Assembly: GCA_963663945.1 (NCBI GenBank)
Contig: OY760687.1
Coordinates: 468,555-532,554 of the forward strand
Direction of reading: 5' to 3'
DNA: 64,000 bases
DNA from: Dehalococcoidia bacterium
GTDB taxonomy: Bacteria > Chloroflexota > Dehalococcoidia > Lucifugimonadales > UBA3495
Below the pieces are notes generated by a model. That model did no database searches. It saw only the letters and a list, made by a program, of their open reading frames with translations, and had not been told where the DNA came from. Made by a program: the position numbers and the translations under genes. Shown here one piece after another: positions 5,332 through 64,000 of this stretch. The first letter of the stretch is position 1, and every line of letters starts with the position of its first letter.

Positions 5332-5428
5332 CCGCGTGCTTAGCAACAATCCCAGTCCCGGGAAACGGAAGCGTATGAACGCCGTCGTACTTGTCCCACC
5401 ACCGATAGATGGTTGGTTCAGGCCTGCG

Positions 5429-45731: not shown

Positions 45732-45742
45732 GTACGATTGGT

Positions 45743-46528: not shown

Positions 46529-46580
46529 TTGGCGATGCTCCTGAGAGGAGATAGTTGCTTGGAGGTGCGATTGGCTGGCG

Positions 46581-47159: not shown

Positions 47160-47194
47160 GCGAACCTAGTTTGAGGCCTTGTGCGCACCCACTT

Positions 47195-47287
47195 TGTCAT
47201 TGCGAGGAGCATAGCGACGCGGCGATCTCGTTGACGAAGCTACGTTGGCCACCCCGACGGGATTGCCGCGCCTCGCTCGCAATGACA
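47195..47287. repeat. REP/MITE-like imperfect palindromic element ('tgtcattgcgagg...cctcgctcgcaatgaca')
   Basis: The terminal 12 nt are perfect reverse complements, and the inner arms pair with gaps. It lies directly 3' of the minus-strand LLM gene. It shares the 'gtcattgcg' terminus with the element at 2940..3004. Confidence 0.5.
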
Positions 47288-47302
47288 ATGCGTCTAGGGC
47301 AG

Positions 47303-48394: not shown

Positions 48395-48530
48395 GGCTCC
48401 TCCCTAGAACAGGGTGCGCCCGGCGGCTGCGCCGGCCTCAGGCTGTAGTGATTGGCGTACCATAGCACAATTCGGGCGGGATTTGCGTCCGTGCTATAGT
48501 GGCCCATCCAGACATGGCAAGGAGGCCAAT

Positions 48531-48962
48531 TTGACCACAGCACAAACGGGTAACAGAGTAAGGGTTCACTACACGGGCCGCCTGGACGATGGGGAAGTTT
48601 TCGACTCATCGGACGGCGGCACACCAATGGCCTTCACCATCGGAGGCGGCCAGGTGATACCGGGGTTCGAGAACGGTGTCGTGGGGATGGCCGTCGGCGA
48701 TACTAAAACCGTCCGGATCCCGTGCGCCGACGCCTACGGTGAGCATCATGCCGACGGCGTCATGCAGGTGCCGCGGGGCGAATTCCCTCCGGAGATGCCC
48801 CTGGAAGTCGGAACCAGTGTGCAGGGTCAGCAGGAGAGCGGGCAGGTGGTCAACTTCACCATCATGGCGGTCTCCGACGAGGCGGTCACCCTGGACGCCA
48901 ATCACCCCCTGGCCGGCAAGGACCTGACCTTTGACCTGACGCTGGTGTCGATAGAGGGTTAG
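48531..48962 (+). CDS. FKBP-type peptidyl-prolyl cis-trans isomerase (SlyD-like, with IF insert)
   Basis: TTG start 48531, in frame with the track ORF, 5 nt after AAGGAGG (48519..48525). ..VRVHYTGRLDDGEVFDSS..FTIGGGQVIPGFENGVVGM.. ..LDANHPLAGKDLTFDLTLVSI. Confidence 0.75.
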   Translation: MTTAQTGNRVRVHYTGRLDDGEVFDSSDGGTPMAFTIGGGQVIPGFENGVVGMAVGDTKTVRIPCADAYGEHHADGVMQVPRGEFPPEMPLEVGTSVQGQQESGQVVNFTIMAVSDEAVTLDANHPLAGKDLTFDLTLVSIEG

Positions 48963-48984
48963 TCTCGCCAAACGCCGGAGGACA

Positions 48985-49800
48985 TTACACCCGCACCTGC
49001 TGCGCCAGTGTCTGGTAGGTGACCGGCGACGTGGCCACCAGGCCGGCGTCCACGGGAAGAATGACGCCGTTGATCCAGCGGGCCTCGTCGCTGGCGAGGA
49101 ACAGGGCCGCGTTGCCGATGTCCCAGGCCGTGCCCTCGGTGCGCAGGGGGGCCGAAGAGCTACGTACCTGGCGAAGGTCGTCGTCCATGCGGGGCGCGAC
49201 CATGGGCGTGTAGACCAGGCCGGGGGCGATGCAGTTGGTGCGGATGCCGTCGGGCCCGTGGTCGGCGGCCATGGAAATGGTCAGGCCGATCACCGCCGCC
49301 TTGGACGCCGTGTAGGGCGTGCTGCTGTGGGCGCGCAGGCCGGCGATGGACGAGATGTTGATGATGGAGCCGCCGCCGGCCTCGATCATTCTCGGTACGG
49401 CGAACTTGCTGGCCATGACGATGGTTTTGACGTTCACCGCCATGATGAAGTCCCAATCTTCTTCCGAGACCTCAACCACCGTGCCGCGGCGGGAGATGCC
49501 CACGTTGTTGTCCAGGATGTCCAGCCGGCCGTAGCGTTCGATGCAGGTTTCGACCATGCGCTCGCAGTCGGCGGCCCTGGTGACGTCGGCCTGCACGGTG
49601 GAGGCCACACCGCCCTCGGCCTGGATCATCTCCATGGTCTCCGCGGCCCGCTCCTCGGTGATATCGACCAGCAGGACCTTGGCTCCCTCCCGGGCGAACA
49701 GCGTGGCGGTGGCGCGGCCGTTGCCGACGCCTGGCCCGCTTGAACCGGCGCCGGTCACGATTGCCACCTTTCCTTCCAGTCGCGGGCTGCGTTCAGGCAC
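48985..49800 (-). CDS. SDR-family oxidoreductase
   Basis: 271 aa with KVAIVTGAGSSGPGVGNG.. and the catalytic YTASKAAV. Confidence 0.85.
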   Translation of the reverse strand: MPERSPRLEGKVAIVTGAGSSGPGVGNGRATATLFAREGAKVLLVDITEERAAETMEMIQAEGGVASTVQADVTRAADCERMVETCIERYGRLDILDNNVGISRRGTVVEVSEEDWDFIMAVNVKTIVMASKFAVPRMIEAGGGSIINISSIAGLRAHSSTPYTASKAAVIGLTISMAADHGPDGIRTNCIAPGLVYTPMVAPRMDDDLRQVRSSSAPLRTEGTAWDIGNAALFLASDEARWINGVILPVDAGLVATSPVTYQTLAQQVRV

Positions 49801-49827
49801 TGTCGAATCCTCCGTGATGGGCCGCCA

Positions 49828-51384
49828 TCATTCGGCGATGGGGCGCGAAATTATCCACAAACTCGCGCAAGTGTAGCACACCATCAGCACCAGCATGGGT
49901 ACCTGGCTGAGCAGTGCGGCGCGCCGGGTCGAATAGATCCGCGTCGCCTGGACATGGGCCAGGTAGACGCCGGCGATGTGGCCCACCACGATGGCGAGGA
50001 TCGAGAAGTACCAGATGAAAACGGGCGACAGGATGCCAATATTGATGATGGCGTCCGCCGTGCCGAAGAGGTCCCAGCCCCAGCCGAAGGGGTCCGATGC
50101 CAACACGATGAACCGCTGGCCGTTGATGAGCAGGAACCCAAGGAAGTGGGCGAAGTGGTAGGCCAGCGCGATGGGCAGCAGCGAAAACGTGAACCGGCGC
50201 AGCAACTGTCCGGCGTCGGGTTCGGATTGACCGGAAAGCGCGGCCATGGCCGCGCAGGTGGCGACGAACAGCAACCCGAAGACCACGGGCAATCCCAGCA
50301 CGCCGATCAGGTTGGCGATGTAGCCACCGTAGCGCGGGAACTGCAGCAGGAACTGGCCGGTGAACACCAGCCATTCCGGCGTCGCCGACAGGCCGTCGAA
50401 GGAAACGGTGGACAGCAGCAGGATGACGTGAAATACCACGGTGAGGGTCACGACCCCGAGGCGGTTCAGGCCGACGCAGGGCGGGCGCAGGTTGAACTGG
50501 CGCTGTGGTGGCGAGGCCGCGGCGTAGCACTCGTAGCAGTCGACACAGTCGGTTTCGCCAGCCGAGCATCGGCCGTCGCTGGAGCATCGCCGGCATCGCG
50601 ACGTTGGCGATCGCACCTCGGTCACCGAGAAACGGGACATGAAGCCGTAAACCACCGTGAACCCCTCGGCGTTGCGCAGCCAGACCTCGCGACCGTACAC
50701 GTACATCCCCACGAAGTTGTACAGCGTGTAGAGCACGAGTATCCGGCCCAGCGCCCGGGGCCCGGCGGTATCGGCGGCCACGGTTTCCAGGATGGCGAAT
50801 CCCACGAATACCAGCACTGCCGGCCATGGTCCGATCCTCGCGGGGTAGCGACGATGCAGGCTCAACCGGCCTCCGCCAGACACGACCGCGAACGCCATCT
50901 CAAGAAATCCCCACGCCGCTTTCCACGGATTGACCAGCGCCCAGAGGTTGCCGAAAAGCGCGGTGAAGAAACTCAGTCCCACCCAGAAGGCGACGTAAAT
51001 CGCCGCCGGCGCCGGATTGAGCGCGGCGCGTTCGTTGCCGATCAGACCCCCGACGATCACATAAACGGTCAACGCGACCGACAGGGTTTTCAGCGTGGCT
51101 GTGACTGGTGGCGATGCCAGCCAGCGCACGGGCGGCAGGCGCAGCAGGTTGTAACGGGGATAGTAGGTGTGGGTCGCGCCGGCCCGCAGGAACACCGCAG
51201 CCACGACGAAGGACAACGCAACCGCGACTGCGCCGGCGATCACGAACAGGGAAAGGGGCAACGGAAGGTCGTACCGCTCACCGAATCCGTGAGCGCGGGC
51301 GGCTACCGGAAACGCCGCGACGAGAGCCGCGACCAACGCGGCCGCGCCCAGAGTCAAGAGGATTCCAGTCGCGCGGCGGTTCAT
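49828..51384 (-). CDS. polytopic membrane protein with a Cys-rich (CxxC-x5-C-x6-CxxCxxC) loop, unknown function
   Basis: Start set at ATG 51384 (MNRRATGILLTLGAAALVAALVAAFPVAARAHGFGERYDLPLPL..), which overlaps the upstream stop (ATGA). At least 10 hydrophobic helices. The loop reads ..RCRRCSSDGRCSAGETDCVDCYECY.. Conserved-looking His pairs occur in ..AYHFAHF.. and ..VVGHIAGVYLAH.. Confidence 0.65.
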   Translation of the reverse strand: MNRRATGILLTLGAAALVAALVAAFPVAARAHGFGERYDLPLPLSLFVIAGAVAVALSFVVAAVFLRAGATHTYYPRYNLLRLPPVRWLASPPVTATLKTLSVALTVYVIVGGLIGNERAALNPAPAAIYVAFWVGLSFFTALFGNLWALVNPWKAAWGFLEMAFAVVSGGGRLSLHRRYPARIGPWPAVLVFVGFAILETVAADTAGPRALGRILVLYTLYNFVGMYVYGREVWLRNAEGFTVVYGFMSRFSVTEVRSPTSRCRRCSSDGRCSAGETDCVDCYECYAAASPPQRQFNLRPPCVGLNRLGVVTLTVVFHVILLLSTVSFDGLSATPEWLVFTGQFLLQFPRYGGYIANLIGVLGLPVVFGLLFVATCAAMAALSGQSEPDAGQLLRRFTFSLLPIALAYHFAHFLGFLLINGQRFIVLASDPFGWGWDLFGTADAIINIGILSPVFIWYFSILAIVVGHIAGVYLAHVQATRIYSTRRAALLSQVPMLVLMVCYTCASLWIISRPIAE

Positions 51385-51947
51385 CAGGCCCCGGAAGAGC
51401 GCCGGCGCAGGGTGAGCCACGTCCACGCTCCCACGGCGATGATCACGATCAGCGTCGCGGTGATCCAGATCCACTGGATACTGGCGCCGGGTTCACCCAC
51501 GTCCAGTGGGAGCACGAACGTTTCCTCGCCGCGTTCCGACTCGACCGTTACGGACACATCCCACGGGCCCGTGGTTGCGAAGGGTACGTCCACTTCGAAA
51601 TAACGTAGCGTCTGCTCGTTCAGCACCTGCCGGGGACCGAATCCTGTAGAGCCAGGAGGCCCGGACGTGACCACGGTCATGCGCACTTCGGTGTCGCGCA
51701 GCGGACGGGGATCTGCGACGTCAAATACCTGGATGGCCAGGTGAGTCTGGGGGATCACCGGCCGCGCGGGGATGATGCCCACCACCATGCGGTAGGGCCC
51801 CTGGGTGCGGTCCATGATGATGGTGGACGCGCCGTTGGCCTCGGCGGTGTCTACCGCCCACGGGCTCGCTGCAAAAGCTGTGATCACCGCTGCCACAGCG
51901 GCGGCGGCAAACGCCATGAACAACCCTGGCGACATGGTCCGAAACAA
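51384..51947 (-). CDS. secreted protein with a C-terminal TM anchor (Ig-like/YtkA-FixH-like suspected), unknown function
   Basis: 187 aa. N-terminal signal (LFMAFAAAAVAAVITAFAASPWAV), a beta-rich middle and a C-terminal helix (IWITATLIVIIAVGAWTWLTL RRR). Confidence 0.6.
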   Translation of the reverse strand: MFRTMSPGLFMAFAAAAVAAVITAFAASPWAVDTAEANGASTIIMDRTQGPYRMVVGIIPARPVIPQTHLAIQVFDVADPRPLRDTEVRMTVVTSGPPGSTGFGPRQVLNEQTLRYFEVDVPFATTGPWDVSVTVESERGEETFVLPLDVGEPGASIQWIWITATLIVIIAVGAWTWLTLRRRSSGA

Positions 51948-52119
51948 CGCTTTCCCTGCTTATCCGAGGGCAAAAATATGCCGCAACACAATAGCACGGG
52001 GTTGCGAGTAGCATCAACAGAAAGCGGCCGTTGCCATCGCTATAATGCCAGTACGCCGAATAACCCCAATGCACCGACGAACGCCTCATTGGGCGCGTCG
52101 TCGATTTCAGGAGAATGGT

Positions 52120-52902
52120 ATGCCCTTCGCAGGATTGGACTTGACCGGACGAAAAGCGCTGGTGACTGGCGCCGCACGCGGAATTGGGGCGACGCTGGCG
52201 GTGGGGCTGGCGCAGGCCGGCGCCGACGTGGCCGTCACCGACATGGCATCCGACGAATCATGGGAAGGGTTGTCAAATGTGGTGATGCAAATCCGCAACG
52301 AGGGTCAGGTCGGGCTGGCCGGCGACCTGGACGTGCAGGACGTTGCTGAAATCCGCCCGACGATCCGCCGCATAGCGGATGACCTGGGCGGGCTGGACAT
52401 CCTGGTCAACAACGCTGGCATCCGCCGTCGCGCACCCGCCCTGGAGGTCACCGAGGAGGACTGGGACGCGGTGATGGACACCAACCTGAAAGGGGCGTTT
52501 TTCTGCTCCCAGGCCGCCGCGAGGCTCATGATACCCAACGAATTCGGCCGCATCATCAACGTCGCCTCGCAGATGGCCCTGGTCGGAGCGGTTAACCGCG
52601 CCGCCTACTGCGCCAGCAAGGGCGGGCTGGCGAACCTGACCCGCGTCCTGGCCCTGGAATGGGCGCAGCACGGCATCACCGTCAATGCCATCGGCCCCGG
52701 GCCGACCACCACGCCGGGCCTGCTGGAAGCGGATGACCGGGACGCCGACGAGGTGCGAGCCGAGCTTGCGATCAAGATGCCCCTGGGCCGGCGCATGGAC
52801 CCGGAGGAACTGGTGGGCGCCGCGATCTACCTGGCCAGCGATTCCGCCGGCGCCACCACCGGCCACCTGCTGGTCGTCGATGGCGGATGGACGGCGTTGT
52901 AG
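52120..52902 (+). CDS. SDR-family oxidoreductase
   Basis: Start at ATG 52120 (MPFAGLDLTGRKALVTGAARGIGATLA..). Catalytic YCASKGGL. Confidence 0.85.
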   Translation: MPFAGLDLTGRKALVTGAARGIGATLAVGLAQAGADVAVTDMASDESWEGLSNVVMQIRNEGQVGLAGDLDVQDVAEIRPTIRRIADDLGGLDILVNNAGIRRRAPALEVTEEDWDAVMDTNLKGAFFCSQAAARLMIPNEFGRIINVASQMALVGAVNRAAYCASKGGLANLTRVLALEWAQHGITVNAIGPGPTTTPGLLEADDRDADEVRAELAIKMPLGRRMDPEELVGAAIYLASDSAGATTGHLLVVDGGWTAL

Positions 52903-52938
52903 AATTGACAGGACGCGGACGAACACGTCCAAAGGACT

Positions 52939-54075
52939 TTGGCCATGAAATTCGGGATGTTCTATGAGTTGCAGATGCCCCGTCCGTGGACGGACACCGC
53001 GGAGTACGACACGCTGTGGAACGCGGTGAAGCAGGTGCAGTACGCTGAGGAGATGGGGTTCGAACGGGTGTGGCTGGTGGAGCATCACTTTCTCACCGAG
53101 TTCGCCCACTCGTCGGCGCCGGAGGTCACGCTGGCCGTGATGGCCCAGCACGCGAAGAAAATGCGGCTTGGCTTTGGCGTGGTGCTGGCGCCGGTGCACC
53201 ATCCTCTGCACGTTGCAGCCCGCGCATCGACACTGGACATCCTGAGCGACGGCCGCGTGGACGTGGGTGTGGGTCGCACCAAGGGGCCGTATCAACTCAC
53301 TCCCTTCGGCACGGACGTGGCCCAGACCCAGAGCATGATGGTGGAGACGCTGGAGTGCCTGCCCCGCATGTGGTGTGACGAGGTCTTCAGCCACGACGGC
53401 GAGAACTGGCAGATCCCACCCCGAGAGGTGATTCCCAAGCCCTTGCAGCAACCCCATCCTCCCCTGTGGATGGCGTGCACCCAGGAGGACACCTTCCGCC
53501 TGGCCGGCCAGCTGGGCGTGGGCTGCCTGGTGAACACCCTGGGCGGCACGGACAAGACGCGCGGGCTGGTGAACGCCTACTACGAGGCCATTGAGAACCC
53601 CACGCCCGTCGGGCGATTCGTCAACCGCCAGGTGGTGGCCTCCACCATCGGGTTCTGCGACGAGGACGATGCCAAGGCACGGCAGAAGGGCGCCGAGGTC
53701 GCGGCATGGTACCTGGAGCAGAGTCGTCAGCGGTTCGTGCTGGAGTGGGCTGGCGTCGATGCCGATGCGGTGCCTGACGAGTACCGGTTCTACGTCCAGG
53801 GCGGCGCGGTGCGCGGAGGCGGGCCGTCCCGTCCGTCGGAGGACCCGCAGCAGCAGAAGCCACCGACCCCGGAGGAATTGCTGGCCGGCGGCGGATATTG
53901 CGTCGGCGATCCCGACGCCTGCATCCGAGTGATTGAGGAATTCGAGGCCATGGGCGTGGACGAGATCATGCCCATCTTCCAGGCCGGTTACGCCACCCAC
54001 GAAGAGGTGATGAACTCCATACGCCTCTTCGGCGAATACGTGATACCCCATTTCCGAGCCAAAGAGGGCCGATAG
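52939..54075 (+). CDS. LLM-class flavin-dependent oxidoreductase, paralog 4
   Basis: 378 aa: MAMKFGMFYEL.., ..GFERVWLVEHHFLTEF.., ..SDGRVDVGVGR.. Confidence 0.85.
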   Translation: MAMKFGMFYELQMPRPWTDTAEYDTLWNAVKQVQYAEEMGFERVWLVEHHFLTEFAHSSAPEVTLAVMAQHAKKMRLGFGVVLAPVHHPLHVAARASTLDILSDGRVDVGVGRTKGPYQLTPFGTDVAQTQSMMVETLECLPRMWCDEVFSHDGENWQIPPREVIPKPLQQPHPPLWMACTQEDTFRLAGQLGVGCLVNTLGGTDKTRGLVNAYYEAIENPTPVGRFVNRQVVASTIGFCDEDDAKARQKGAEVAAWYLEQSRQRFVLEWAGVDADAVPDEYRFYVQGGAVRGGGPSRPSEDPQQQKPPTPEELLAGGGYCVGDPDACIRVIEEFEAMGVDEIMPIFQAGYATHEEVMNSIRLFGEYVIPHFRAKEGR

Positions 54076-54091
54076 CGCCCGGGAGATTTCG

Positions 54092-55231
54092 ATGACTACT
54101 GTTGAGCAGTTGGGTACGTCCGCACAGCCGGCCGGAGTCCGCCGAACGGGTACACCGGTGGTGTCGGTGGTGGCCACCACGCCGGAGACAGTGCTGGAGG
54201 ATGTGGAGCGGGCCATGCGGCTGGCCGGCGCGGAGGCGGTGCTCTCGCCGGAGCGGGGAACGCTGCTGAAGATAAACATCTCGTGGCAGCACTGGTATCC
54301 CGGATGCTCGACGGCACCCTGGCAACTGGAAGGAGCGATCCGCGGGCTGCAGAACATGGGTCATCGGGATCTCATCGCCGCGCACAACGGCACTGTCGTC
54401 GTCGATTCCTTCGAGGGCGAGGTTAACAACAAGCACAAACCGGTGCAGGATAAGTACAACCTGCGCACGGTTCACCTGGACACTCCGCCGGAGCCTTGGG
54501 TCCGGTACGAGCCCAAAGCCGACATGCTGGTGCTGGACGACATCTACCCCGAGGGCATCGAAATACCCGAAATCTTTGCCGGCAAGAACATCGTCCACCT
54601 GCCCACCATGAAGACCCACGTCTTCACCACCATGACCGGCGCCATGAAGAACGCCTTCGGCGGCCTGCTGCACCGCAAGCGCCACTGGACCCACTCGGTG
54701 ATCCACGAGACGCTGGTGGACCTGCTGGCCATTCAGCAGGAGATTCACCCCGGCATCTTCGCGGTAACTGACGGCACCTTCGCCGGCGACGGGCCCGGCC
54801 CCCGCGCCATGCGATGGCATATCAAGAACCGTATCGTCGCCGGCGCCGACCAGGTGGCGGTGGACGCCGTGGTCGCGTCCATGATGGGCTTCGACCCGCT
54901 GTCGTTGCGGTTCATCCGCCTGGCCCACGAGCGCGGCCTGGGAGTGGGCGACATGCGCGACATCGAGGTGGTCGGCGACGAGCCGGACATCAGCCGCGTC
55001 AACTGGAAATTCGCCGACAACGAGAACACCTTCGCCAGCCGCGGCCAGAAGATGATCTACTGGGGTCCCCTCAAGCCCCTGGAGAACGCCCTGCTCCGCT
55101 CCCCCATCGCCGCCTGGGCCTACACCGCCAGCAACATCTACCACAACGGCTACTGGCTCAACACGATAGGCAAGGGCCGGGTGCGCAAGGCGCTGAAGAC
55201 GGAGTGGGGCAGGTTGTGGCAAGGTTATTGA
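54092..55231 (+). CDS. DUF362-domain protein
   Basis: 379 aa with ..LLKINISWQHWYPGCSTAPWQLEG.. and ..HLPTMKTHVFTTMTGAMKNAFGGL.., typical DUF362 blocks. Confidence 0.75.
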   Translation: MTTVEQLGTSAQPAGVRRTGTPVVSVVATTPETVLEDVERAMRLAGAEAVLSPERGTLLKINISWQHWYPGCSTAPWQLEGAIRGLQNMGHRDLIAAHNGTVVVDSFEGEVNNKHKPVQDKYNLRTVHLDTPPEPWVRYEPKADMLVLDDIYPEGIEIPEIFAGKNIVHLPTMKTHVFTTMTGAMKNAFGGLLHRKRHWTHSVIHETLVDLLAIQQEIHPGIFAVTDGTFAGDGPGPRAMRWHIKNRIVAGADQVAVDAVVASMMGFDPLSLRFIRLAHERGLGVGDMRDIEVVGDEPDISRVNWKFADNENTFASRGQKMIYWGPLKPLENALLRSPIAAWAYTASNIYHNGYWLNTIGKGRVRKALKTEWGRLWQGY

Positions 55232-55324
55232 CGGTTGATTGCTGCCCCATTAGGATTCTCCGTAAATATTAATGTCCGATCTGCTTGGTCAGAACTATCC
55301 AAAGCTCGGTGAAGGCGAACTAAA

Positions 55325-56722
55325 ATGCATATCGACACGATCAGACTCGGAAACGTGGCTCCATTTACAGAGGAAGTGAAGTTTGACTTCAAGGGGAAAG
55401 TTAACGTTTTCATTGGAGCAAACGCAACGGGCAAGACCACTTTATTGCAGACGATCTCGCCAAACATCGCATGGCGCGATATCAGGCAATCGTTTGATGT
55501 GGATCGGACCTTTGAAGTATTCGTGAGTCCTGATTGGCCGCCGGGTGCAGATGGGTTTGTTGACACCCGCGCCGTCCCTTGGATTTATGTGCCACCGATC
55601 CGGACCATATTGCCCGTGCTTACGGATCTTTCGACACGATTTCTTTCCAGCCGCAATGTCGCTGGCGGCGATATCAACATGGCATTGGAGGTGTTGCCAC
55701 ATAGATTCGAAGCCGAGGATGTGTACGACGCCGTTCAAATCATGACTGTGAATAGCACTAAGCCGGATGAGACTCAAATTCGGCCGATTATGAGGCGAGC
55801 ATACAGTGTGGCTAAATCAGTCTGCCGAGAAATTCTGCGGGGCGACGAACCCAAAGAGTTTACCAACCAAGTCAATCTAGGCGACGGCCCTGACGATAAC
55901 TATCTCGTTACGATTCCGCATTATGGGATGGGGGTCGAAATCGCCGACAAACCAGGAGAACCAATCTTCGCGGGCGAATTGTCTGCGGGTGTACAAAGCA
56001 TATTTTTGGTTGCCCTCCATCTATCTTTGAAAATCGTAAACGATTACAAGCAGACAGAAAGATGGAGAGACCTACCAGACAACTGGCACAGTAAACCAGC
56101 AATTCTATTGATCGACGAGATCGAAAACCATTTGCATCCCACCTGGCAACGCAGAGTGATCCCTGCACTCCTCGACCATTTCAAGGGGTTACAAATTTTC
56201 GCGACCACCCATTCGCCGTTTGTTGTGGCAGGGCTAAAAGCTGGACAGATCCATAAATTGTACAAAAACAACCGCGGGACGATTTGCACGGAACGAAACG
56301 CGGAGGACGTGGTCGGTTGGACAGTCGAGGAAATCCTACGGGAATTCATGGAAGTCTCAGATCCGACGGATGAAGCTACGGCTAAGTGTGCTTCCGTCTT
56401 GCGCTGGCTTCGATATCAACAACCTGAGGAAACGGACATTGAAAGATGGCAACATGCCAAAATCGTAGAATTGCAACGCATCGCACATCCGCATCCTGAT
56501 CAATCTGCGGCATTGCAGTGGTTATCGGAAGAAGTAAATGCTCGTGGGGATGCTTTTGAATGGTGGCGGTCTCAGATTGCGCATTTGGAAGAAATATTAA
56601 CTCCAGAGTTAGAAACCCATGGACCGATCGCCGCTCAAAATCAGATACTCATGCGGCAACTTGCAGACCTGTTGGAAGGAGATGGAGAACCAACAAGCGT
56701 TGACGGGGAGGAACCAGACTGA
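55325..56722 (+). CDS. AAA/ABC-type ATPase, Septu PtuA-like
   Basis: 465 aa. Walker A GANATGKTTLL, signature-like ELSAGVQS, Walker B ILLIDEIENHLHP, H-loop ATTHSPFV, and a helical acidic C-terminus. Overlaps the next gene by 1 nt. Markedly lower G+C than the core. Confidence 0.8.
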   Translation: MHIDTIRLGNVAPFTEEVKFDFKGKVNVFIGANATGKTTLLQTISPNIAWRDIRQSFDVDRTFEVFVSPDWPPGADGFVDTRAVPWIYVPPIRTILPVLTDLSTRFLSSRNVAGGDINMALEVLPHRFEAEDVYDAVQIMTVNSTKPDETQIRPIMRRAYSVAKSVCREILRGDEPKEFTNQVNLGDGPDDNYLVTIPHYGMGVEIADKPGEPIFAGELSAGVQSIFLVALHLSLKIVNDYKQTERWRDLPDNWHSKPAILLIDEIENHLHPTWQRRVIPALLDHFKGLQIFATTHSPFVVAGLKAGQIHKLYKNNRGTICTERNAEDVVGWTVEEILREFMEVSDPTDEATAKCASVLRWLRYQQPEETDIERWQHAKIVELQRIAHPHPDQSAALQWLSEEVNARGDAFEWWRSQIAHLEEILTPELETHGPIAAQNQILMRQLADLLEGDGEPTSVDGEEPD

Positions 56723-57462
56723 TGCACTCCGTGCCACCACAGCCGGCACCTGCATATCTGGCGGCATTCAAGCGTGCTCACCACGACCAAACCACTGGGC
56801 AATTCCGTTGGAATTTGTCACCCAACGAACATTCCGTTCTCATCGCGGACTTGGCTAGTCAATTTGGTGCCCCCCGCCGTCCGTCAATAGGTGAAAGTGC
56901 CAAACCCGATCCGGGCGAAGGTATTTGCGCATATTGCGAGCGCTCGTGTAGCAAGATTCCTGGTAGTCCCACTACCAATGAGATAGACCATTTCTACCCA
57001 CGTAGCGACTGGAACGCCTTAGTATTCGAATGGACCAATCTCATGTACGTGTGTCGGCGTTGTAACGATGCCAAGGATGACGGCGCGTTTGTCTCAAACC
57101 TGAAAAGCGACCCAGATAGCTACGTCAACCCACGCGCGCCACAAGCTGAGAATTATTTTGCGTTCCAAGTCACGGAAACTGACTGCCGGATGATCCCCAA
57201 CGAGAATCTACAATCCAAGGCAGATATCGAGAAAGCCCAACGCACGATTCGTGACTTGGGCCTAGACCGGGTGGATACCATAAGAAATAGAAATGTACGG
57301 CTTTTGAGAGCAAATTACTTGAGACAAATAGCATATGTACTATCTAAAATTCCTCAGGGAAAAAGAGAAAACTTATTACGGAGATTGAGTGATCGGAATT
57401 GCGAGTTTTCAAGCACGGTCATATGGGCTAGGGCGTGTCTACATTCAGTGAGCACACTCTAG
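56722..57462 (+). CDS. HNH endonuclease (TIGR02646-like), Septu PtuB-like
   Basis: 246 aa. The beta-beta-alpha-Me/Zn-finger motif is CAYCERSC..NEIDHFYPRS..WTNLMYVCRRCNDAKDD. Confidence 0.8.
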   Translation: MHSVPPQPAPAYLAAFKRAHHDQTTGQFRWNLSPNEHSVLIADLASQFGAPRRPSIGESAKPDPGEGICAYCERSCSKIPGSPTTNEIDHFYPRSDWNALVFEWTNLMYVCRRCNDAKDDGAFVSNLKSDPDSYVNPRAPQAENYFAFQVTETDCRMIPNENLQSKADIEKAQRTIRDLGLDRVDTIRNRNVRLLRANYLRQIAYVLSKIPQGKRENLLRRLSDRNCEFSSTVIWARACLHSVSTL

Positions 57463-57542
57463 GAACGCAACTCAGCAGGGTACCCGCCAAGACTGGCGTA
57501 CAAAAACCCCTGGCACCGCAGCAGCCAACCGCAGAAAAGAAC

Positions 57543-57575
57543 GAGCGGGCACCACACGGTGCCCGCTCTCTTTTA
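57543..57575 (+). terminator. rho-independent terminator after the HNH gene
   Basis: 11-bp perfect stem gagcgggcacc / ggtgcccgctc with loop acac, followed by tctttta. Confidence 0.7.
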
Positions 57576-57831
57576 CCAACCGCCGGTCCCTATCAACAGA
57601 ACCCGCGACACAAAGGTTGCTTTTTTTTGATCAGCGGCTTTAGAATAGCGGTGACGGCAGTTTTGCAGGCGACCGTCACCACAGCGGAGAAAGGAGTCGG
57701 GCACTTTTTTGGTGCCTCAGCGGGAAGCCCGCGCCCTCTTAAAGGGACGGGCCAACCTCCTTTCGCTGTGATTATAACACCGGGCTATCGAGGCTACTCA
57801 AGCGCCTGCTGACATCGAATGGAGGGTAACC

Positions 57832-58380
57832 ATGCCAACCACCCTTGAGGAACAAATTGCCAATTACAGGGAAGCCCGCGCCATCGTCGTAGACTCCCTC
57901 GCCGAACTTGACAACAAAATCGAGCTACTCACTAAAGCCAAACGATTGCTCGAAACTGACGTGACGCTGGCAATCAGTCATTTTAGCGGGCAAGACCACC
58001 CTAACAAATTCGTACCTACCCAAGCCCAAGTCGTGACCATCGGATTCCCTGATGTAGACACATCATCCATCGCCGGGTGCGACAGCATCCCAGAAGCGAT
58101 GGAGGCATGGGCGGAGGCAAACAACGACGAGGTCAAAGGCAAGATTCTTGGCGCGGCACTCAGGAAGATTGGGCTCAGTACAGCAAAGGACGACAATAGC
58201 GTGGCTGCCTCCATCCACAACATAGCGACGAAATCTCACGCGCAGAAATGGCAGAAAATCGGCCCCGGCCACTTCAGGCTCCGGCGCGAACTCCCGGAAG
58301 CCGAAGTCTCCCAAGACCTCAACTCCGACGTCCCGGACCTCGGAATTCAGCCCGACACTGACCCTCTCACCGACCATTAA
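57832..58380 (+). CDS. hypothetical protein (182 aa): N-terminal coiled coil + possible winged-helix (HARE-HTH-like) segment
   Basis: GGAGGG 5 nt upstream of the ATG. MPTTLEEQIANYREARAIVVDSLAELDNKIELLTKAKRLLE.. ; ..IPEAMEAWAEANNDEVKGKILGAALRKIGLSTAKDDNSVAASIHNIATKSHAQKWQKIGPGHFRLRR.. The family call is tentative. Confidence 0.55.
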   Translation: MPTTLEEQIANYREARAIVVDSLAELDNKIELLTKAKRLLETDVTLAISHFSGQDHPNKFVPTQAQVVTIGFPDVDTSSIAGCDSIPEAMEAWAEANNDEVKGKILGAALRKIGLSTAKDDNSVAASIHNIATKSHAQKWQKIGPGHFRLRRELPEAEVSQDLNSDVPDLGIQPDTDPLTDH

Positions 58381-58488
58381 CGGCCCGCCCAATACGGGCA
58401 TCCGCAATACCCAAAATCGCTCCCAAAATGACACTCTCAAGTTGCGGAGTCTGCCTATAAAACGTACAATCGTTCTCAATTAACATAC

Positions 58489-58525
58489 ATCGGGGTCGCC
58501 AGTTCTTCAGGCCGACGACCCCGAT
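58489..58525 (+). other. 10-bp perfect hairpin (atcggggtcg / cgaccccgat), possibly a terminator or an IS-end structure
   Basis: Read directly. 17-nt loop, no U-tract. It lies between the orphan gene and the IS5-family transposase. Confidence 0.3.
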
Positions 58526-58691
58526 TACGAAAGCGCCGCCCAGGACCGTCATATCCAAGGGGCTTTCGTTCTCGATTCTAACGGCGCGTGCCGCATCGCA
58601 CAACCCCCATCCGTCATGGGGGTAACCTTCAACGCGCGCCTCAACCGGGACGAAGTCCCTGCGGTTCCACGGGCGAACCGGAGGGACCCAG

Positions 58692-59612
58692 ATGCCCACA
58701 CGTTTCTACTGCACCGACCGTCAGTGGCGAAAGAGAATCTCCTCACTTCTACCAGGCCAAGAGGGACATCCAGGCTACACAGCCCACGACAACCGTGTCG
58801 ACTTCGAAGCCATGCTCGAGTCCGCTCATGAGGGCCACACCTGTCGTGGCCTCGACCAGACCTTCGGGAAATGGGGCAGCGTCTGCCAGAGAATGGACCG
58901 CTGGGAACAGCAAGGCGTGTTCCACAGATTATTCAACGAATTGGTCGCCAAGCACGGCGTGAGCTCACTCATAGTCGACGGCACCATCGTATCGGTCCAC
59001 CAAGACGCAACCGGAGCCCGTAGAGCACACGGCGACCCAGAGAGTCAAGCCATCGGACACAGCAGGGGCGGTCGCACCACCAAAATCATCGCTGCCTGCG
59101 ACGAAAGCGGCGACGTGTTCAACCTCCTCGTCGTGCCAGGTAACGACAACGAGTCGCCATACACACAACGCCTCATCAACGGCATAGAGGCTGAGTTTTT
59201 CATAGCCGACAAGGCGTACGACAGTGACAAGCTGCTCGATGCCGTCGCACAACGAGGAACCGAAATCGTGGTGCCCCCTCGGTCCAATCGCCTGGTCCAG
59301 CGCAACTACGACAAAGAGAAGTACAAAACCAGGAACTTAATTGAACGCGCCTTCCAAAAGATGAAGAGGTTCCGCGCTATCGCCACGAGGTACAGAAAGA
59401 CCGCACGGATGTATGTCGCGCTCATCATCCTCATCCTGGTGTACCTCATCACCAAAAGAGGCAAAAGCGGGCTGCGCTTCGTCCAAATCTGGCGGTACCC
59501 ACAACCGCCCACCAAGTACGAACTCTACGTTCCCGAGAACCTGCGGCAGGAATACGAGAGATTCCAACGCCCCCACCGAGCAGACTTTGCTTGGTTTGAC
59601 CCACCGACTTGA
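58692..59612 (+). CDS. IS5-family (IS427/IS1031-like, DUF4096 + DDE) transposase with an atypical ~60-aa C-terminal extension
   Basis: 306 aa. N-terminal ..TDRQWRKRISSLLPG..DNRVDFEAML..FGKWGSVCQRMDRWEQQGVF.. DDE residues lie in LIVDGTIV, FIADKAYDSD and NLIERAFQKMKRFRAIATRY. I could not identify the element ends (IRs). Confidence 0.75.
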   Translation: MPTRFYCTDRQWRKRISSLLPGQEGHPGYTAHDNRVDFEAMLESAHEGHTCRGLDQTFGKWGSVCQRMDRWEQQGVFHRLFNELVAKHGVSSLIVDGTIVSVHQDATGARRAHGDPESQAIGHSRGGRTTKIIAACDESGDVFNLLVVPGNDNESPYTQRLINGIEAEFFIADKAYDSDKLLDAVAQRGTEIVVPPRSNRLVQRNYDKEKYKTRNLIERAFQKMKRFRAIATRYRKTARMYVALIILILVYLITKRGKSGLRFVQIWRYPQPPTKYELYVPENLRQEYERFQRPHRADFAWFDPPT

Positions 59613-59760
59613 AATTGACGCACTGACAACACCACGTTGCCGCACCTTCCTCAACCGTGGGATACTGCGCCAGTGTTTCCACAACGGTACGTGGCGCCAC
59701 CTCTGAGTTGTGGTAGGTCGCCCACCATCAGGGAACAAATCGTTACCTGGGGCGCTCGAC

Positions 59761-60015
59761 ATGGCTCAACAACCCTTCGGCGGACTTCACGAACACGATG
59801 CCAACCAAGTCATCGCGGAATGGCTTGGAACATCGCGTCCTGATTGGCAGGTTTCTGGCGAAAGGACCCGCACCATAAAGGACAGCGCGGACCGTCCCGA
59901 CGTCATCATCCAGCAGGGCGTGAGGATGCCCGTCATCATCGAGTGCGAGTATGACAAGCCGGCGGTCGGCGATGCCCAAAAAAGGCTGGGCAAAGAACTG
60001 GTCAACGAGACCCGT
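59761..60015 (+). pseudogene. 5' fragment (85 codons) of a nuclease-like/N6-adenine DNA methyltransferase gene interrupted by IS21
   Basis: MAQQPFGGLHEHDANQVIAEWLG..RPDVIIQQGVRMPVIIECEYDKPAVGDAQKRLGKELVNETR. The frame then runs into IS sequence and joins in frame to 62456.. once the IS and one copy of 'cccgt' are removed. Confidence 0.65.
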
Positions 60016-60052
60016 TGTCCCGCGTCAACCATTCTTGCCGATTTATCGTCGA

Positions 60053-60871
60053 TTAGTTTTGCCGGTTCACCTCCTTGGCAGGCGCAGCGTTGGCGTCGGC
60101 CGCGGCAGTCTCGCCGCGTTGCTGTGCTGCGTCAGTCCGGTAGCTGGGGACGTCGAATTCCAGGATGACGGAGTGGTGAACCACCCGGTCAATCGCTGCG
60201 GCGGTGGCCATGGGATTGGCAAAGATGCGCTCCCACTCCGAGAAGACCAGGTTGGACGTGATGCCCAACGACCGGCGTTCGTAGCGTTCTGCGATGAGGG
60301 TGAAGAGGACCTCGGACTCCTCAGTACCCTGGGGCAGGTAGCCGAGATCGTCCAGGAGGAGGAAGTCGAAGTTGTCCAGCTTGCGCAGTTGTCGGGGCAG
60401 GTCGAAGTCACGCTTGGCGGCCAGCAGATCCTGCACCAGACGGTAGGCCGGTGCGAAGAGGACGGAGTGGCCGGCCTCCACCAGGCGGTGTCCCAGAGCG
60501 CAGAGCGCGTGGGTCTTGCCGGTGCCGGGGAGCCCGAAGGCCAGCACGTTGACGCCGTGATCCACGAAGCTGCCCTGGGCCAGTTGGTCCATCTGCTGCC
60601 GTAGAGCGAGGGGCATCCGGTGATGCTCGAAGGTCTCCCAGGTCTTGCCCGAGGGGAGCCGGGACGCCTGACGCAGCCGGTTGATGCGCCGGTGGCGGCG
60701 ATCCTCGGCTTCCTGCTCCAGCACCTCCAGGAAGGTGGACAGGGCCTCGCCGTGGCCAGCCTCGGTGAAACGGGCCACCGACTGAGCGCCCATGGTGGGC
60801 AGCTTGAATTCGCGGCAGAGCTGACCGATGCGCTCCGGGATCACGCTGGTGTCGGTGTCCATCATGCGCAC
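60053..60871 (-). CDS. istB: IS21-family helper ATPase IstB
   Basis: 272 aa. Walker A GLPGTGKTH, Walker B FLLLDDLGY. Confidence 0.9.
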   Translation of the reverse strand: MRMMDTDTSVIPERIGQLCREFKLPTMGAQSVARFTEAGHGEALSTFLEVLEQEAEDRRHRRINRLRQASRLPSGKTWETFEHHRMPLALRQQMDQLAQGSFVDHGVNVLAFGLPGTGKTHALCALGHRLVEAGHSVLFAPAYRLVQDLLAAKRDFDLPRQLRKLDNFDFLLLDDLGYLPQGTEESEVLFTLIAERYERRSLGITSNLVFSEWERIFANPMATAAAIDRVVHHSVILEFDVPSYRTDAAQQRGETAAADANAAPAKEVNRQN

Positions 60872-62364
60872 ACCCCCACCATGGCCGTACTGCTCGTGAG
60901 CAGACCGTCGTAGATCTTCAGGTCCGGCTTCCCAGAGAGGACCAGCACCGGAGCCTGGGGCACCCTGGGCTCGGCCAGTTCCCGCACCTCGGCGTAGTCG
61001 AAGGGCTGACCGGTCTCCAGCAGCAGCGACAGGGCGCTGTCCACCATGACCTCCATGGTGGTGGCCGCCAGGTGCAGGATGCGCACGTACTCCACGTCGG
61101 CGCGCTCACCGCGCCACTGCCTGAGCGCATCGTAGGCCAGCCGGAAGTGCAGGGTGGGAAAGAGCTGCTCCCTGAAGCGGTACCGGGCGAATGCTCCGGG
61201 CTTGCGCACCAGGGAATTGATCACGTGGCGGTAATTGACGTTTACTTCCCCATCACCGTGCACGCGCGCCATGCGTTCCACAAAGTGGCCCTTGTAGTAC
61301 ACTTCCACGTGCTCGGAATAGAGGCGGATCTGTACCACCTTGCCAATGAGCCGGGACGGGACGCTGTAGCTGCGTCCCGCCACCTGGATCGTACTCCACC
61401 GGCGCACCTTGGACTGGTAGTTGGCGTATTCCGGCATGGGGGCTGGCGGCAGGGGTCTTAGGCAAGCCATTTCCTGCTCCAGCTTCCCCCGCACCAGGCG
61501 GTTTCGCTTCTCCACCATCTCCCGTACGAAACCGGCGTAGTCGTCGGCGGTGTGGAAATCGCGGCTGCCGCGCATGATCAAAGCCTGGTCCACGGCATCC
61601 TTCAAACGGTAGTGAGCGTGCTCGGCAACGCCGTTTTCGTGGCTCTTGCCAGGATTGATGCGGGTGGATCGGACACCGTAGTGGTCCAGCAGGGCGGCGT
61701 AATTGTCGTTTAGCGCCCGGCCTCGGCTGCGTTTCATCTCGTGGGTGGCAGCAGAGGTATTGTCGGAACGCACCACCTCCGGTACGCCGCCCAGGGCCCA
61801 GAGCGCATTCTGTAATCCCTGCTTGAGGGCCAGGAAGGTCTCGCCGGCGGCGACCTCCGCGTAGCGCCAGCCCGAGTGGCTGAGGATCAGCTGAAACAGC
61901 AGGTGGGGGTAGGGCTCACCGGCGACGGTCACCCCCAGGGCGCTGCAGTGGGTGAAATCAAACTGGGCCTCCCGACCCGGCGGATGCTCCTGGGGGAAGT
62001 AAACCTCCTGATCCGGGCCATTCAGCGCCCGCCAGTCCTGTAATCGTCGTTGCAGGGTGCGCAGCTGGGAGGCGCTGAACTGGCCAGGATGCTGCTCCTC
62101 CAGCCATTCGATAATCGTCGTTGCCTTCAGCTTGCCCTTGGGGTCGTCCCGCAGCAGGGGCTCAATCTCCTCTTCCCACACCCCGTCGAAGGGGTCGGAC
62201 CGAGTGCGCCACCAGCGCTCCGGTTTGGTCTCCGACGGCAACGGGCCACTCTGCCATTTGCGCGCCGACCGCACGCTCATCCCAGACATGGCGGCCGCCG
62301 TCTCCTGTGTCTTGCCTTCCATACGTTTTTGCCTCAAAAGTCTGACTTGTCGGTCCTTGATCAA
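60862..62364 (-). CDS. istA: IS21-family transposase IstA
   Basis: 500 aa. N-terminal HTH (..TQETAAAMSGMSVRSARKW..), a DDE core (..QFDFTH.., ..VVRSDNTSAAT..) and a 10-nt overlap with istB. Confidence 0.9.
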   Translation of the reverse strand: MIKDRQVRLLRQKRMEGKTQETAAAMSGMSVRSARKWQSGPLPSETKPERWWRTRSDPFDGVWEEEIEPLLRDDPKGKLKATTIIEWLEEQHPGQFSASQLRTLQRRLQDWRALNGPDQEVYFPQEHPPGREAQFDFTHCSALGVTVAGEPYPHLLFQLILSHSGWRYAEVAAGETFLALKQGLQNALWALGGVPEVVRSDNTSAATHEMKRSRGRALNDNYAALLDHYGVRSTRINPGKSHENGVAEHAHYRLKDAVDQALIMRGSRDFHTADDYAGFVREMVEKRNRLVRGKLEQEMACLRPLPPAPMPEYANYQSKVRRWSTIQVAGRSYSVPSRLIGKVVQIRLYSEHVEVYYKGHFVERMARVHGDGEVNVNYRHVINSLVRKPGAFARYRFREQLFPTLHFRLAYDALRQWRGERADVEYVRILHLAATTMEVMVDSALSLLLETGQPFDYAEVRELAEPRVPQAPVLVLSGKPDLKIYDGLLTSSTAMVGVCA

Positions 62365-62455
62365 TCCGGCACCTCCGTGCCGGACGATTTACACCATCCC
62401 AACCGGCAAGAATAGTCGGCGCAAGAGGCATTCCTTATTGTCGTCTATCACCCGT

Positions 62456-64000
62456 CCTTTCACCGAAGTCATCGCAATCGGCATCGACAGTAAATGCCGC
62501 AACGATACTCGCTCAAAGTTCCGAAACAGGTTGGAAGAGAGCGAGGCCATTCTGCAGGTGCAGTTGGTCAGAGGACTGGACAGCACCAACGGCACCGTAT
62601 GGCCCTCAACGCCGCTTCCTTGCCGACCAGAAGACCTAATCGCTTACTGCGAATACGCACAGGTGCCACAGACAGTCATAGACGACCAAAGTAGGCAAAT
62701 CGCCGAGAGAATTGAAGCCGCTGGTACCAGCCTACTTACCAGCATCCGGGGTACTGGGCTACTCGCCGAACAAACACTGACCACCCTCAGAGAGCTCACC
62801 GGTTGCAAACACCCACACGAGAACGAACCCAACGCAGTTCCCCCGGAGGAACGTCCGGATTACCTTGCCTCACGGTGTCCAAACGTGTGCGACCACGATA
62901 CCCAGGCAACGCGGACCGCCTGCGCCGTCTGGCTCATTGCCATAGATTTGCAGAACGACTTGGCACAGTACAGCCGCAACCTGCAAGCGCAGAACCTCCA
63001 AAGCACAGGATCTCTGATAGGTGCCTCGATGGGCGTGCTGACGGTTTCAGACGTCCTGGCTCAGTGGAGAACCATAGCGGATGTAAATTACCTTCCCGTC
63101 GTCGAGCTCGCGATAGACACCCTGGGCGCAGGAGCGATGGGCAGCTCAATCCCTGATGTCCTGGATTACCTCCACCGGCTCAGCGCACAAATCAACGCAC
63201 TCCACGCGAAGCATGTGTACAACTTCGCAGGCGAACTTTGGCAGAGGCTGGTGACCGACCGCGAGGAGAGAGCCGCACACTACACCAAGCCAGAAATTGC
63301 TGAACTCCTGTCATCCATCGCAGCAGAGCGCTTCAACGCCCTGGGTTCAACTGCAATCGCCAGTCTCAATCTCATGGACGCCGCGTGCGGCACTGGGACT
63401 CTCCTCGGCGCCGGAGAGCGCGCCTTACGACGCAAATACACCGTCAAAGGCGGGCGCGATGCGAACCTCCACCGTAAGCGTATGGAAGAGCATATCTACG
63501 GGATGGATATAAATGGCATTGCCGGAACGCTGACCGCTAAACGACTCACGGACATGAACGTTGAGCAGGACTATGCCCAAAGCAAAATAGCAGTGATTAC
63601 CGACCAAGCGGGTTCGCTTATCTTGATGAACCCCGGGATAACCGGCGTATCTCAAGTGCTGGGATACCGCAATGTCACCCCGACCAAAGGGATTGGTGGC
63701 GAGGCAGGAATCTTTCATGTCCCGCACCAGAGCATAAACCTTTCGCTCATGAACCCTCCTTACAGCAGACCACGTAAAGGGAGAGAGCAGGCGACAAAGG
63801 GCCTTGACCCGATCCGCGCCGCAGCCAGAAAGCAAAAATATCTCATGTCCCACGGTCAAGCTGGATTGGCCAGCGATTTCAGCAACCTGAGCAACATTAG
63901 GCTTGCTTACGGCGGGGTGTTCGCGCACGTCCTACCACTCACCGCGGCACACGCTGAGACCTGGAAAAACTGGCGTTCTCAAATGGAAAAGGATTTCGAC
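62456..64000 (+). pseudogene. 3' continuation (515 codons, open to the window edge) of the IS21-split gene: helical region + gamma-class N6-adenine DNA methyltransferase
   Basis: Not in the ORF track (no stop). Manual translation in the frame starting at 62456 gives PFTEVIAIGIDSKCRND... ..AAHYTKPEIAELL.. Motif I is LMDAACGTGTLLG (~63371). ..IYGMDINGIAGTLTA.. Motif IV is LMNPPYSR (NPPY 63752..63763). No stop codon through 64000. Confidence 0.7.

Follow-up and report, generated by a model that had tools for sequence, protein, structure and literature searches.

In its type I form the Septu system, reportedly described by Doron and colleagues in 2018, consists of two overlapping genes, one for an ATPase (PtuA) and one for an HNH nuclease (PtuB), and a homologous effector pair is found in type I-A retrons (Ec78/Eco7), where it accompanies a non-coding RNA and a reverse transcriptase (RT). 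Where PtuAB has been characterised, the two proteins form a complex of ATPase and nuclease, for which cleavage of tRNA-Tyr has recently been reported (PMC13096335, PMC12673091). Type IIG/IIL restriction-modification (RM) enzymes (BpuSI, PDB 3s1s; DrdV, PDB 7lvv; MmeI-like) combine a nuclease-like domain, a connector, a methyltransferase and a recognition domain in one chain. Canonical elements of the IS1031/IS427 group within the IS5 family of insertion sequences (IS) are ~0.9 kb long and carry a transposase only, and for the IS1031 group a 3-nt target and a single open reading frame (ORF) have been reported (PMC2516522). Here, we compare with these systems positions 55232-64000 of a 64,000-nucleotide stretch of a Dehalococcoidia genome (GenBank assembly GCA_963663945.1, contig OY760687.1; the whole stretch is hereafter called the window). 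This segment very probably forms the opening ~9 kb of an island of defence genes and mobile elements that was acquired by horizontal transfer, in a host genome of high guanine plus cytosine (G+C) content. The island would have been assembled from modules with separate histories, and it is very likely composed of a Septu pair, an IS5-type unit, a solitary type IIG-like gene interrupted by a recent IS21 insertion and, beyond the window, a TnpB-like gene. An earlier note, made from the letters of this DNA, had listed a Septu pair, a structured non-coding stretch, an orphan gene, an IS5 transposase gene and an IS21-split nuclease/N6-methyltransferase gene in this order. All of these were found, although the boundaries drawn between them have to be changed: the non-coding stretch, the orphan and the transposase gene form a single putative IS5-type unit, the left end of which is at position 57428, inside ptuB.

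The foreign character of the segment is evident from its composition. G+C content per kb was 0.60-0.68 over positions 1-55000, with a single dip at 29-30 kb, and then changed to 0.50-0.53 (55001-58000), 0.57-0.58 (58001-60000), 0.64-0.66 (60001-62000) and 0.56-0.59 (62001-64000). In 300-nt windows the switch from 0.65 to 0.47 took place between 55050 and 55350, directly 3' of the stop codon of the DUF362 gene (54092-55231, the upstream neighbour of ptuA; Pfam 1.9e-19), which confirms the sharp drop from the core (0.64 to 0.50) noticed earlier. Relative to a core reference of 20 long ORFs (mean G+C 0.639, standard deviation 0.026, G+C at third codon positions 0.79), the values for ptuA (0.497, z -5.4) and ptuB (0.498) indicate a sharp drop for the Septu pair, and those for the orphan (0.554), the IS5-type transposase (0.570) and the type IIG-like gene (0.554), each with z about -3, a milder one for the remainder (0.55-0.58). 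The description of the region as a compositionally foreign set of defence and mobile genes holds. The left junction of the island, together with the region upstream of ptuA, occupies 55232..55324 (plus strand), where the G+C switch is accompanied by a promoter-like TTGACG-17-TAGGAT at 55228-55256. A search for a transfer RNA or transfer-messenger RNA gene as an integration site found none in the whole window, and Rfam models, searched at permissive E-values over 54000-64000, gave no match.

The revision of the boundaries relies on comparison with other loci carrying relatives of the orphan. DNA homology between the window and two such loci, L003 and L004, starts exactly at 57428 (CTAGGGCGTGTCTACATTCAG), and the homology of L003 to L004 likewise begins at the position equivalent to 57428, so that three differing left flanks meet a single breakpoint. 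The first 21 nt to the right of it (57428..57448, plus strand; CTAG|GGCGTGTCTACATTCAG) are a probable terminal inverted repeat, preceded by a CTAG/TAG target, and are 100% identical in the window, L003 and L004 within surrounding DNA that is ~68-70% identical. In both loci a homologue of the orphan (51% identity) is followed by a transposase gene with DUF4096 and DDE_Tnp_1 domains at a matching spacing of ~312 nt. On the right-hand side, homology to L003 and L004 stops at ~59596-59605, near the stop codon of the transposase gene (59612), and homology of the type IIG-like cassette to the unrelated locus L005 starts at 59632; therefore, the IS5-type unit would end within 59600-59631.

The second line of evidence comes from a more distant lineage (L088-L091), in which an orphan homologue of 25% identity (P0150) is again followed by an IS5-type transposase gene. 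The right flanks of L088 and L089 diverge at L088 ~7296-7305, directly after CTGAATGTCAACAGCCCCTAG, the reverse complement of which agrees with the left 21-mer of the window at 16/21 positions. The presence of the inverted 21-mer at this right breakpoint argues that the shared sequence is the terminal repeat of an IS lineage and that the orphan lies inside it. CTAG was present at all five junctions observed, and a 3-nt target of the kind reported for IS1031-group elements (PMC2516522) would fit this; the end motif of the lineage can be written in degenerate form as CTAGGG[CG][GC]TGT[CT][TG]ACATTCAG. In the L088-type element (L088 ~4500-7301), a probable inverted-repeat pair of 19 nt with 89% complementarity was also observed at 4512-4530 and 7275-7293, 2.74 kb apart. 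The left arm overlaps a 550-aa ORF on the minus strand, inside the 5' end predicted for it, and differs from the right end in the ~10 nt that lie outermost.

In the window an IS5-family unit of this type would have entered ptuB at a CTAG very close to the 3' end of the gene. Read from the left, it would comprise the terminal repeat, a leader that is structured and contains terminator-like hairpins as well as a promoter-like site, the orphan, a second, conserved leader that likewise has a promoter-like site, and the DDE transposase gene. The transposase (58692-59612, plus strand; 306 aa, including a C-terminal extension of ~55 aa) belongs to the IS5 family and is IS1031-like: it matched NCBIfam transpos_IS5_3 at 3.4e-59 (200 bits against a cut-off of 110 bits) and contains the Pfam domains DDE_Tnp_1 and DUF4096. 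It is 40% identical to the L088 transposase and, at the DNA level, ~70% identical to those of L003 and L004, while its closest plasmid-borne relatives, in IS5-family elements of Acetobacter and Komagataeibacter, are 46-47% identical. The unit shares the transposase domains of the IS1031/IS427-like elements but differs from them in its length of ~2.2 kb (at least 2.18 kb) versus ~0.9 kb, in an additional conserved 182-aa protein gene upstream of the transposase gene, in two long structured leaders, in the 55-aa C-terminal extension and in having no detectable right inverted repeat. It also has neither the ~340-nt tail nor the right repeat present in the L088-type element, and the window copy is probably a one-ended, immobile remnant.

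The leader (57463..57831, plus strand; 369 nt) corresponds to the stretch of 370 nt described earlier as non-coding and structured, and both properties were confirmed: no codon periodicity was detected in it or in the 311-nt spacer downstream of the orphan, it has no Rfam match, and it folds better than shuffled sequence (z -4.8). Hairpins were located at 57543-57568 (terminator-like on both strands), at 57605-57620, followed by a run of eight T, and at 57650-57680. All three recur in L003 and L004, where five pairs have changed in a compensatory manner and 98.6% of cells are paired; this conservation is suggestive at most, as it comes from two independent lineages only. A candidate promoter, TTGCTT-18-TAGAAT (57617-57646), read by eye and under the threshold of the scanning tool, and a Shine-Dalgarno sequence, GGAGGG, were also noted. 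The spacer, which is the leader of the transposase gene (58381..58691, plus strand), is ~70-76% identical to L003 and L004, equal to the coding parts; its fold z-score against shuffles is -3.8, with hairpins at, e.g., 58522-58574, and it contains a candidate promoter TTGCGG-17-TACAAT (58442-58470), again found by eye under the scan threshold, whose hexamers are conserved in the window, L003 and the distant L088 lineage. These leaders would protect the element against transcription entering from its surroundings and govern its own expression.

Between the leaders lies the orphan gene (57832-58380, plus strand; 182 aa). The differences at the three codon positions between two lineages were 68/45/96 for the orphan and 62/40/146 for the transposase, which indicates that both are coding. 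The orphan family is extremely rare: two clusters at 90% identity were found among 5.8 billion proteins (the other cluster being 51% identical), with 19 matches among 1.84 billion representative proteins. No match was obtained in Pfam, NCBIfam, PADLOC, PHROGs, a PDB profile search or a tblastn search of plasmids, and no relatives were found in JGI metagenomes or IMG/VR viral contigs. Members of the family have a long N-terminal helix (coiled coil), a variable linker and a conserved C-terminal domain of ~70 aa with the order helix-helix-helix-strand-strand (H-H-H-beta-beta) and the signature GLSxAK...IH...W..GPGxFR.

These data raise the question of whether the orphan and the structured region are an independent, undescribed defence or regulatory module set between two systems and perhaps cooperating with Septu, as the earlier note had proposed. 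The orphan remains unmatched in any library, the regions on both of its sides are significantly structured (z -4.8 and -3.8), and its known copies are found in defence-rich settings, beside DUF499 and DUF7680 genes in L003 and L004 and beside a HATPase/DNA-methylase pair in L089. However, ptuAB is absent beside the orphan elsewhere (none was called in the 9.6 kb upstream in L003 or in the 1.4 kb upstream in L004), and a recombinase gene always follows the orphan, i.e., an IS5-type transposase gene in two deep lineages and a serine recombinase gene in one. Moreover, the orphan lies within the terminal sequence of an element that begins at 57428 inside ptuB, a breakpoint common to all three copies, and the inverted 21-mer recurs at the L088 end; the rarity of the family also argues against such a module. 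We therefore consider it very unlikely that the orphan and its RNA form a new defence module. The maintenance of the orphan-transposase pair in three lineages and the 21-nt end motif bracketing it instead point to an accessory or cargo gene of the IS. The copies in L003 (14751-20074) and L004 (5183-11680) adjoin a cluster of DUF499 (~930-980 aa), DUF7680 and large-protein genes that looks like a defence-type operon; L003 also has an IS630-type insertion, which is not present in L004, and a 222-aa ORF downstream in L003 is unrelated to the 989-aa type IIG-like protein of the island.

Within the IS reading, the orphan could also be simple cargo, picked up by an IS1031-like element and unconnected with transposition, e.g., an anti-defence gene, a toxin or antitoxin, or a regulator benefiting the host. 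That canonical IS1031/IS427-group elements contain a transposase only speaks for this possibility, as do the promoter-like site and leader that the orphan has of its own and the occurrence of an orphan homologue in a different type of mobile element, with a serine recombinase. Nevertheless, the pair has been retained although the orphan has diverged to 25% and the transposase to 40% identity. The two proteins have diverged together (51% and 25% for the orphan; ~70% in DNA and 40% in protein for the transposase), and retention across such deep divergence favours functional coupling over recent capture. The coiled coil and the H-H-H-beta-beta domain, in an AlphaFold 2 model of low confidence, would also suit a DNA-binding accessory protein. 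Simple cargo thus seems to us an unlikely explanation, if one of some weight. In our view the orphan would serve mobile-element recombinases as a DNA-binding accessory factor, acting in the regulation of the element or in the recognition of its target or ends. A 29%-identical relative of the orphan was observed at L080-L087, in a conserved cluster of small genes that has IS630-type (DDE_3) transposase genes on its flanks and lies just upstream of the gene for a large serine recombinase of 538 aa.

To the left of the IS5-type unit, ptuA and ptuB form a complete stand-alone two-gene Septu pair. The ptuA gene (55325-56722, plus strand) encodes an ATPase of the ABC/AAA_15-AAA_21 type of 465 aa, and ptuB (56722-57462, plus strand) an HNH nuclease of 246 aa, the start of ptuB overlapping the ptuA stop at 56722. 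PtuA was matched by dozens of PADLOC PtuA models (best 4.5e-36), by Pfam AAA_21 (6e-22), AAA_15 (2e-18) and AAA_23, and by PDB entries for PtuA from Septu (8ee4) and from type I-A retrons; its Walker A motif is GANATGKT and its Walker B motif LLIDEIE. For PtuB, matches were found to PADLOC PtuB (2.7e-21), Pfam HNH (6e-8), PDB PtuB chains and NCBIfam TIGR02646 (59 bits against a cut-off of 52 bits). The gene order, the overlap, the protein sizes and the Walker and HNH/zinc-finger motifs are all those of type I Septu. The pair differs from it in being divergent (NCBIfam equivalog scores are far under their cut-offs), in PDB matches that span the C-terminal half of this PtuA only, in its location in a high-G+C host genome and in the 3' end of ptuB. 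The IS5-type unit begins within ptuB, so that IS sequence makes up the final 11 codons and the stop codon of this gene (57430-57462); the HNH core and most of PtuB are intact. By analogy with the studied Septu systems, PtuA would hold the nuclease PtuB in a complex from which it is released on infection, and the released PtuB would cut tRNA-Tyr or DNA. The chimeric C-terminus may affect this predicted protection against phages.

The combination of ptuAB with a structured RNA downstream could also be taken for what is left of an Ec78/Eco7-like retron of type I-A after loss of the RT. PADLOC models of this retron type do match the pair (ATPase_I-A 2.2e-31, HNH_I-A 1.7e-18), as do, below threshold, the NCBIfam models named 'retron Ec78 PtuA/PtuB', and the best sequence matches in PDB are retron PtuA chains. 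However, the Septu PtuA and PtuB models outscore the retron models, and none of the ORFs scanned in 55232-58400 encodes an RT. The DUF362 gene is situated only 93 nt upstream of ptuA, and there is no Rfam match, which together with the missing RT argues for a stand-alone Septu. In the retrons, moreover, the non-coding RNA and the RT gene lie upstream of the effector pair, whereas the structured region here is downstream, is part of the IS and is homologous to IS leaders at loci where no ptuAB was called nearby. A retron remnant is hardly credible under these circumstances; with neither an RT nor an msr-msd upstream of ptuAB, the type I-A assignment was rejected.

To the right of the IS5-type unit lies a single large gene, which is interrupted in the window. 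Its first part, comprising the upstream region and codons 1-85 (ATG at 59761), is located at 59632..60015 (plus strand), is defined by homology to L005 and carries the residues D47, E61 and E63. The remainder (62450..64000, plus strand), which continues from codon 84 or 86 and runs off the window, contains a helical connector and a gamma-class N6-adenine methyltransferase with the motifs DAACGTG and NPPY. An intact allele was found in a 21-kb Logan contig, L001, which is the only source of sequence beyond the window; there the protein has 989 aa. Its family has at least 254 members, with full-length identities of 50-80%; none of them has a precomputed Pfam domain, and the few that are named in their sources are called hypothetical.

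The 989-aa protein is predicted from structural modelling to be an RM enzyme of the type IIG-like fold in a single polypeptide, similar to BpuSI and DrdV. An AlphaFold 2 model of a 79%-identical homologue (predicted local distance difference test score, pLDDT, 82; predicted template modelling score 0.83) had BpuSI as its top Foldseek match (3.8e-15 over 1111 alignment columns), followed by DrdV (1.3e-11) and then by CamA and PglX/BrxX. From the N- to the C-terminus, the predicted domains are a PD-ExE nuclease, a helical connector, a gamma-class N6-adenine methyltransferase and a target-recognition domain. D47, E61, DAACGTG (motif I) and NPPY (motif IV) are invariant in 33 homologues and E63 is present in at least 90% of them; the three acidic residues lie in the N-terminal alpha-beta-beta-beta-alpha-beta core. 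The protein thus resembles the type IIG/IIL enzymes in having all four parts in one chain and in being encoded by a solitary gene with several paralogues in some genomes. It differs from them in that it is only ~10-12% identical to any solved structure, in that no Pfam, NCBIfam or PADLOC model reaches significance, in its D-x13-E-x-E instead of the D...ExK motif and, for the window copy, in being split by IS21.

The methyltransferase might alternatively be the PglX-like component of a multi-gene bacteriophage exclusion (BREX)-like or type I/III-like system, with its partners past the end of the window, and the earlier note had expected RM- or BREX-like partners just outside. The best, though weak, profile matches are indeed to PglX (PADLOC 4.9e-6; NCBIfam BREX_2_MTaseX 0.0013), and PglX/BrxX structures are among the Foldseek matches. 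Nevertheless, the top fold match is the type IIG enzyme BpuSI, and the protein has a nuclease-like N-terminal alpha-beta-beta-beta-alpha-beta domain of its own with invariant D47 and E61. Close and distant homologues occur in unrelated contexts: among 43 Dehalococcoidia loci no neighbour family was present in more than six, and three sampled contexts of homologues were mutually unrelated. In L001 the self-contained 989-aa gene is directly followed by a TnpB-like gene (17481-18623 of L001, ~1.2-2.4 kb past the window end; NCBIfam guided_TnpB 1.3e-18, PADLOC Cas12f-like 1.5e-20), and no RM or BREX partner gene was found after it in this contig, which stops within the TnpB-like gene. The view that the island continues beyond the window was therefore correct, but the expected partners did not appear there, and we regard a multi-gene system as very improbable. 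Linked PglZ, BrxC, BrxA/B and BrxL genes, as expected of BREX, did not emerge from the TnpB-like neighbour in L001 or from the 43 loci, across which no family of neighbours is recurrent, and BREX was rejected. The end of L001 inside the TnpB-like gene suggests that the latter is part of a multi-copy IS605-type element.

Two or three paralogues of this solitary gene were seen in some genomes. L007, for instance, has a second paralogue (44% identity) at a distance of 9 kb. Members of the family occur mainly in metagenome-assembled genomes (MAGs) of Dehalococcoidia and other Chloroflexota, including SAR202 (loci L010-L079). Relatives of 23-31% identity were observed in Arenicellales, Rhodothermales, 'Porisulfidus' and unclassified MAGs, and several of them align over residues ~283-973 only, without the N-terminal nuclease part. 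In L005, another defence island, a 78%-identical homologue is situated between a pair of AAA_15 and DUF4276 genes (OLD/Gabija-like) with serine-recombinase genes and a complete type I-E CRISPR-Cas operon, the flanking defence genes being at 3053-4782 and 15567-22772.

The element that splits the type IIG-like gene is a 2434-bp member of the IS21 family (60016-62449, minus strand), identified by its empty site in L001 and by its profiles. It carries istA (60862-62364, minus strand; NCBIfam transpos_IS21 3e-61) and istB (60053-60871, minus strand; NCBIfam IS21_help_AAA 7e-66, Pfam IstB_IS21 1e-49). Its overlapping istA and istB genes, its sub-terminal repeats (60022-60067 and 62401-62422), its 6-bp target duplication (ACCCGT, 60010-60015 and 62450-62455) and its length of 2.4 kb are those of the family; nothing in it is unusual except the polymorphism between otherwise identical sequences. 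L001 is 100% identical to window positions 45325-60015 (14,691 bp) and 62450-64000 (1,551 bp), with an overlap of 6 bp, a pattern that fixes the IS21 limits at 60016-62449 and shows that an IS21-free allele exists. As the flanks of the element are 100% identical in the IS21-free contig, the insertion, judged from the sequences compared, is very recent and polymorphic. With a G+C content of 0.641 the element is, as anticipated, host-like.

IS21 sits after codon 85, so that the segment with D47, E61 and E63 is severed from a remainder of 910 aa. If expressed, this remainder, P0005, could be an orphan methyltransferase created by IS21. P0005 is present as a 910-aa ORF in the public annotation (62438-64000, plus strand, in the window), with a TTG start inside the IS21 end; it is without the nuclease residues and keeps the methyltransferase and recognition domains. 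The IS-mediated decay claimed in the earlier note is thus supported: IS21 splits the nuclease-methyltransferase gene, and the IS5-type unit, itself without a right end, replaces the 3' end of ptuB.

Several points weigh against parts of the account favoured here, i.e., a Septu pair, an IS5-type unit and a solitary type IIG-like gene with a recent IS21. The left inverted repeat of the L088-type element agrees in its inner 19 nt only, and neither the window nor L001 (4.4 kb downstream), L003 or L004 was found to contain the left 21-mer in inverted form. A right repeat of the IS5-type unit was sought with up to five mismatches, with a degenerate motif and by aligning the left 47 nt locally to the DNA that follows in L001, L003 and L004; the matches were at chance level only. 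Because the right end is undefined, the mobility and exact extent of the window copy are putative. The orphan-transposase module is backed by only two to three independent lineages, and the more distant orphan homologue of 29% identity adjoins a serine recombinase gene instead of a transposase gene. The pLDDT of the orphan model was 45, so that only its secondary structure was used, and the role ascribed to the orphan above is pure inference; its C-terminal domain, which we took to be a putative winged helix of the HARE-HTH or Mrr_N kind, received no support from Pfam. For the 989-aa family, no sequence profile of a known RM family reached significance: Pfam N6_Mtase gave an E-value of 0.047 (13 bits against a cut-off of 20 bits) and PADLOC REase_MTase_IIG 0.002, the PglX and BREX_2_MTaseX scores given above are likewise sub-threshold, and a PDB profile search with the family found nothing significant. 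The nuclease motif, D...ExE (D-x13-E-x-E), has E at the third position and is not the canonical ExK; given this and the missing profile support, the nuclease activity is predicted only.

What is new in these data is mild: an IS1031-like lineage in which an accessory gene is conserved and the leaders are structured, a large, unannotated type IIG-like family (~960-990 aa), and a fresh, polymorphic IS21 insertion by which this enzyme loses its nuclease segment. A bolder version, which we offer tentatively and to which we give somewhat less than an even chance, is that the orphan family is a dedicated partner of deep-branching IS1031-like transposases, forming a two-gene IS in which a DNA-binding accessory factor and structured leaders regulate transposition or target it to CTAG sites, often in defence islands, and that the Pfam-invisible family of 960-990 aa, widespread among Dehalococcoidia and co-occurring marine MAGs, represents a new subclass of type IIG enzymes whose nuclease is of the PD-ExE type. 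We know of no two-gene architecture with an accessory factor described for the IS5 family.

As an island, the locus is of an ordinary kind, in which defence genes lie together with insertion sequences and each erodes the other. An undescribed defence system in it is not supported, and IS-mediated decay is. The IS21 insertion has been caught in the act, with filled and empty alleles otherwise 100% identical and exactly the nuclease catalytic segment cut off. An insertion that leaves a 910-aa methyltransferase and recognition ORF would be a plausible route from a toxic RM enzyme to an orphan methyltransferase. As a type IIG-like family of ~960 aa is labelled hypothetical and is invisible to Pfam, NCBIfam and PADLOC, censuses of defence and RM genes in these abundant marine bacteria undercount. 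The locus also calls for caution in the discovery of defence systems by guilt by association, as the unknown gene and structured RNA between defence modules turned out to be, in all appearance, the interior of an insertion sequence.

A second, small dip in G+C content was observed in the otherwise G+C-rich core of the window. It coincides with a gene for an Mrr-type (type IV, modification-dependent) restriction endonuclease (28565-29476, plus strand; Pfam Mrr_cat 1.4e-38 and Mrr_N), whose G+C content is 0.537 in a 29-30 kb bin of 0.524, and which represents a separate defence islet.

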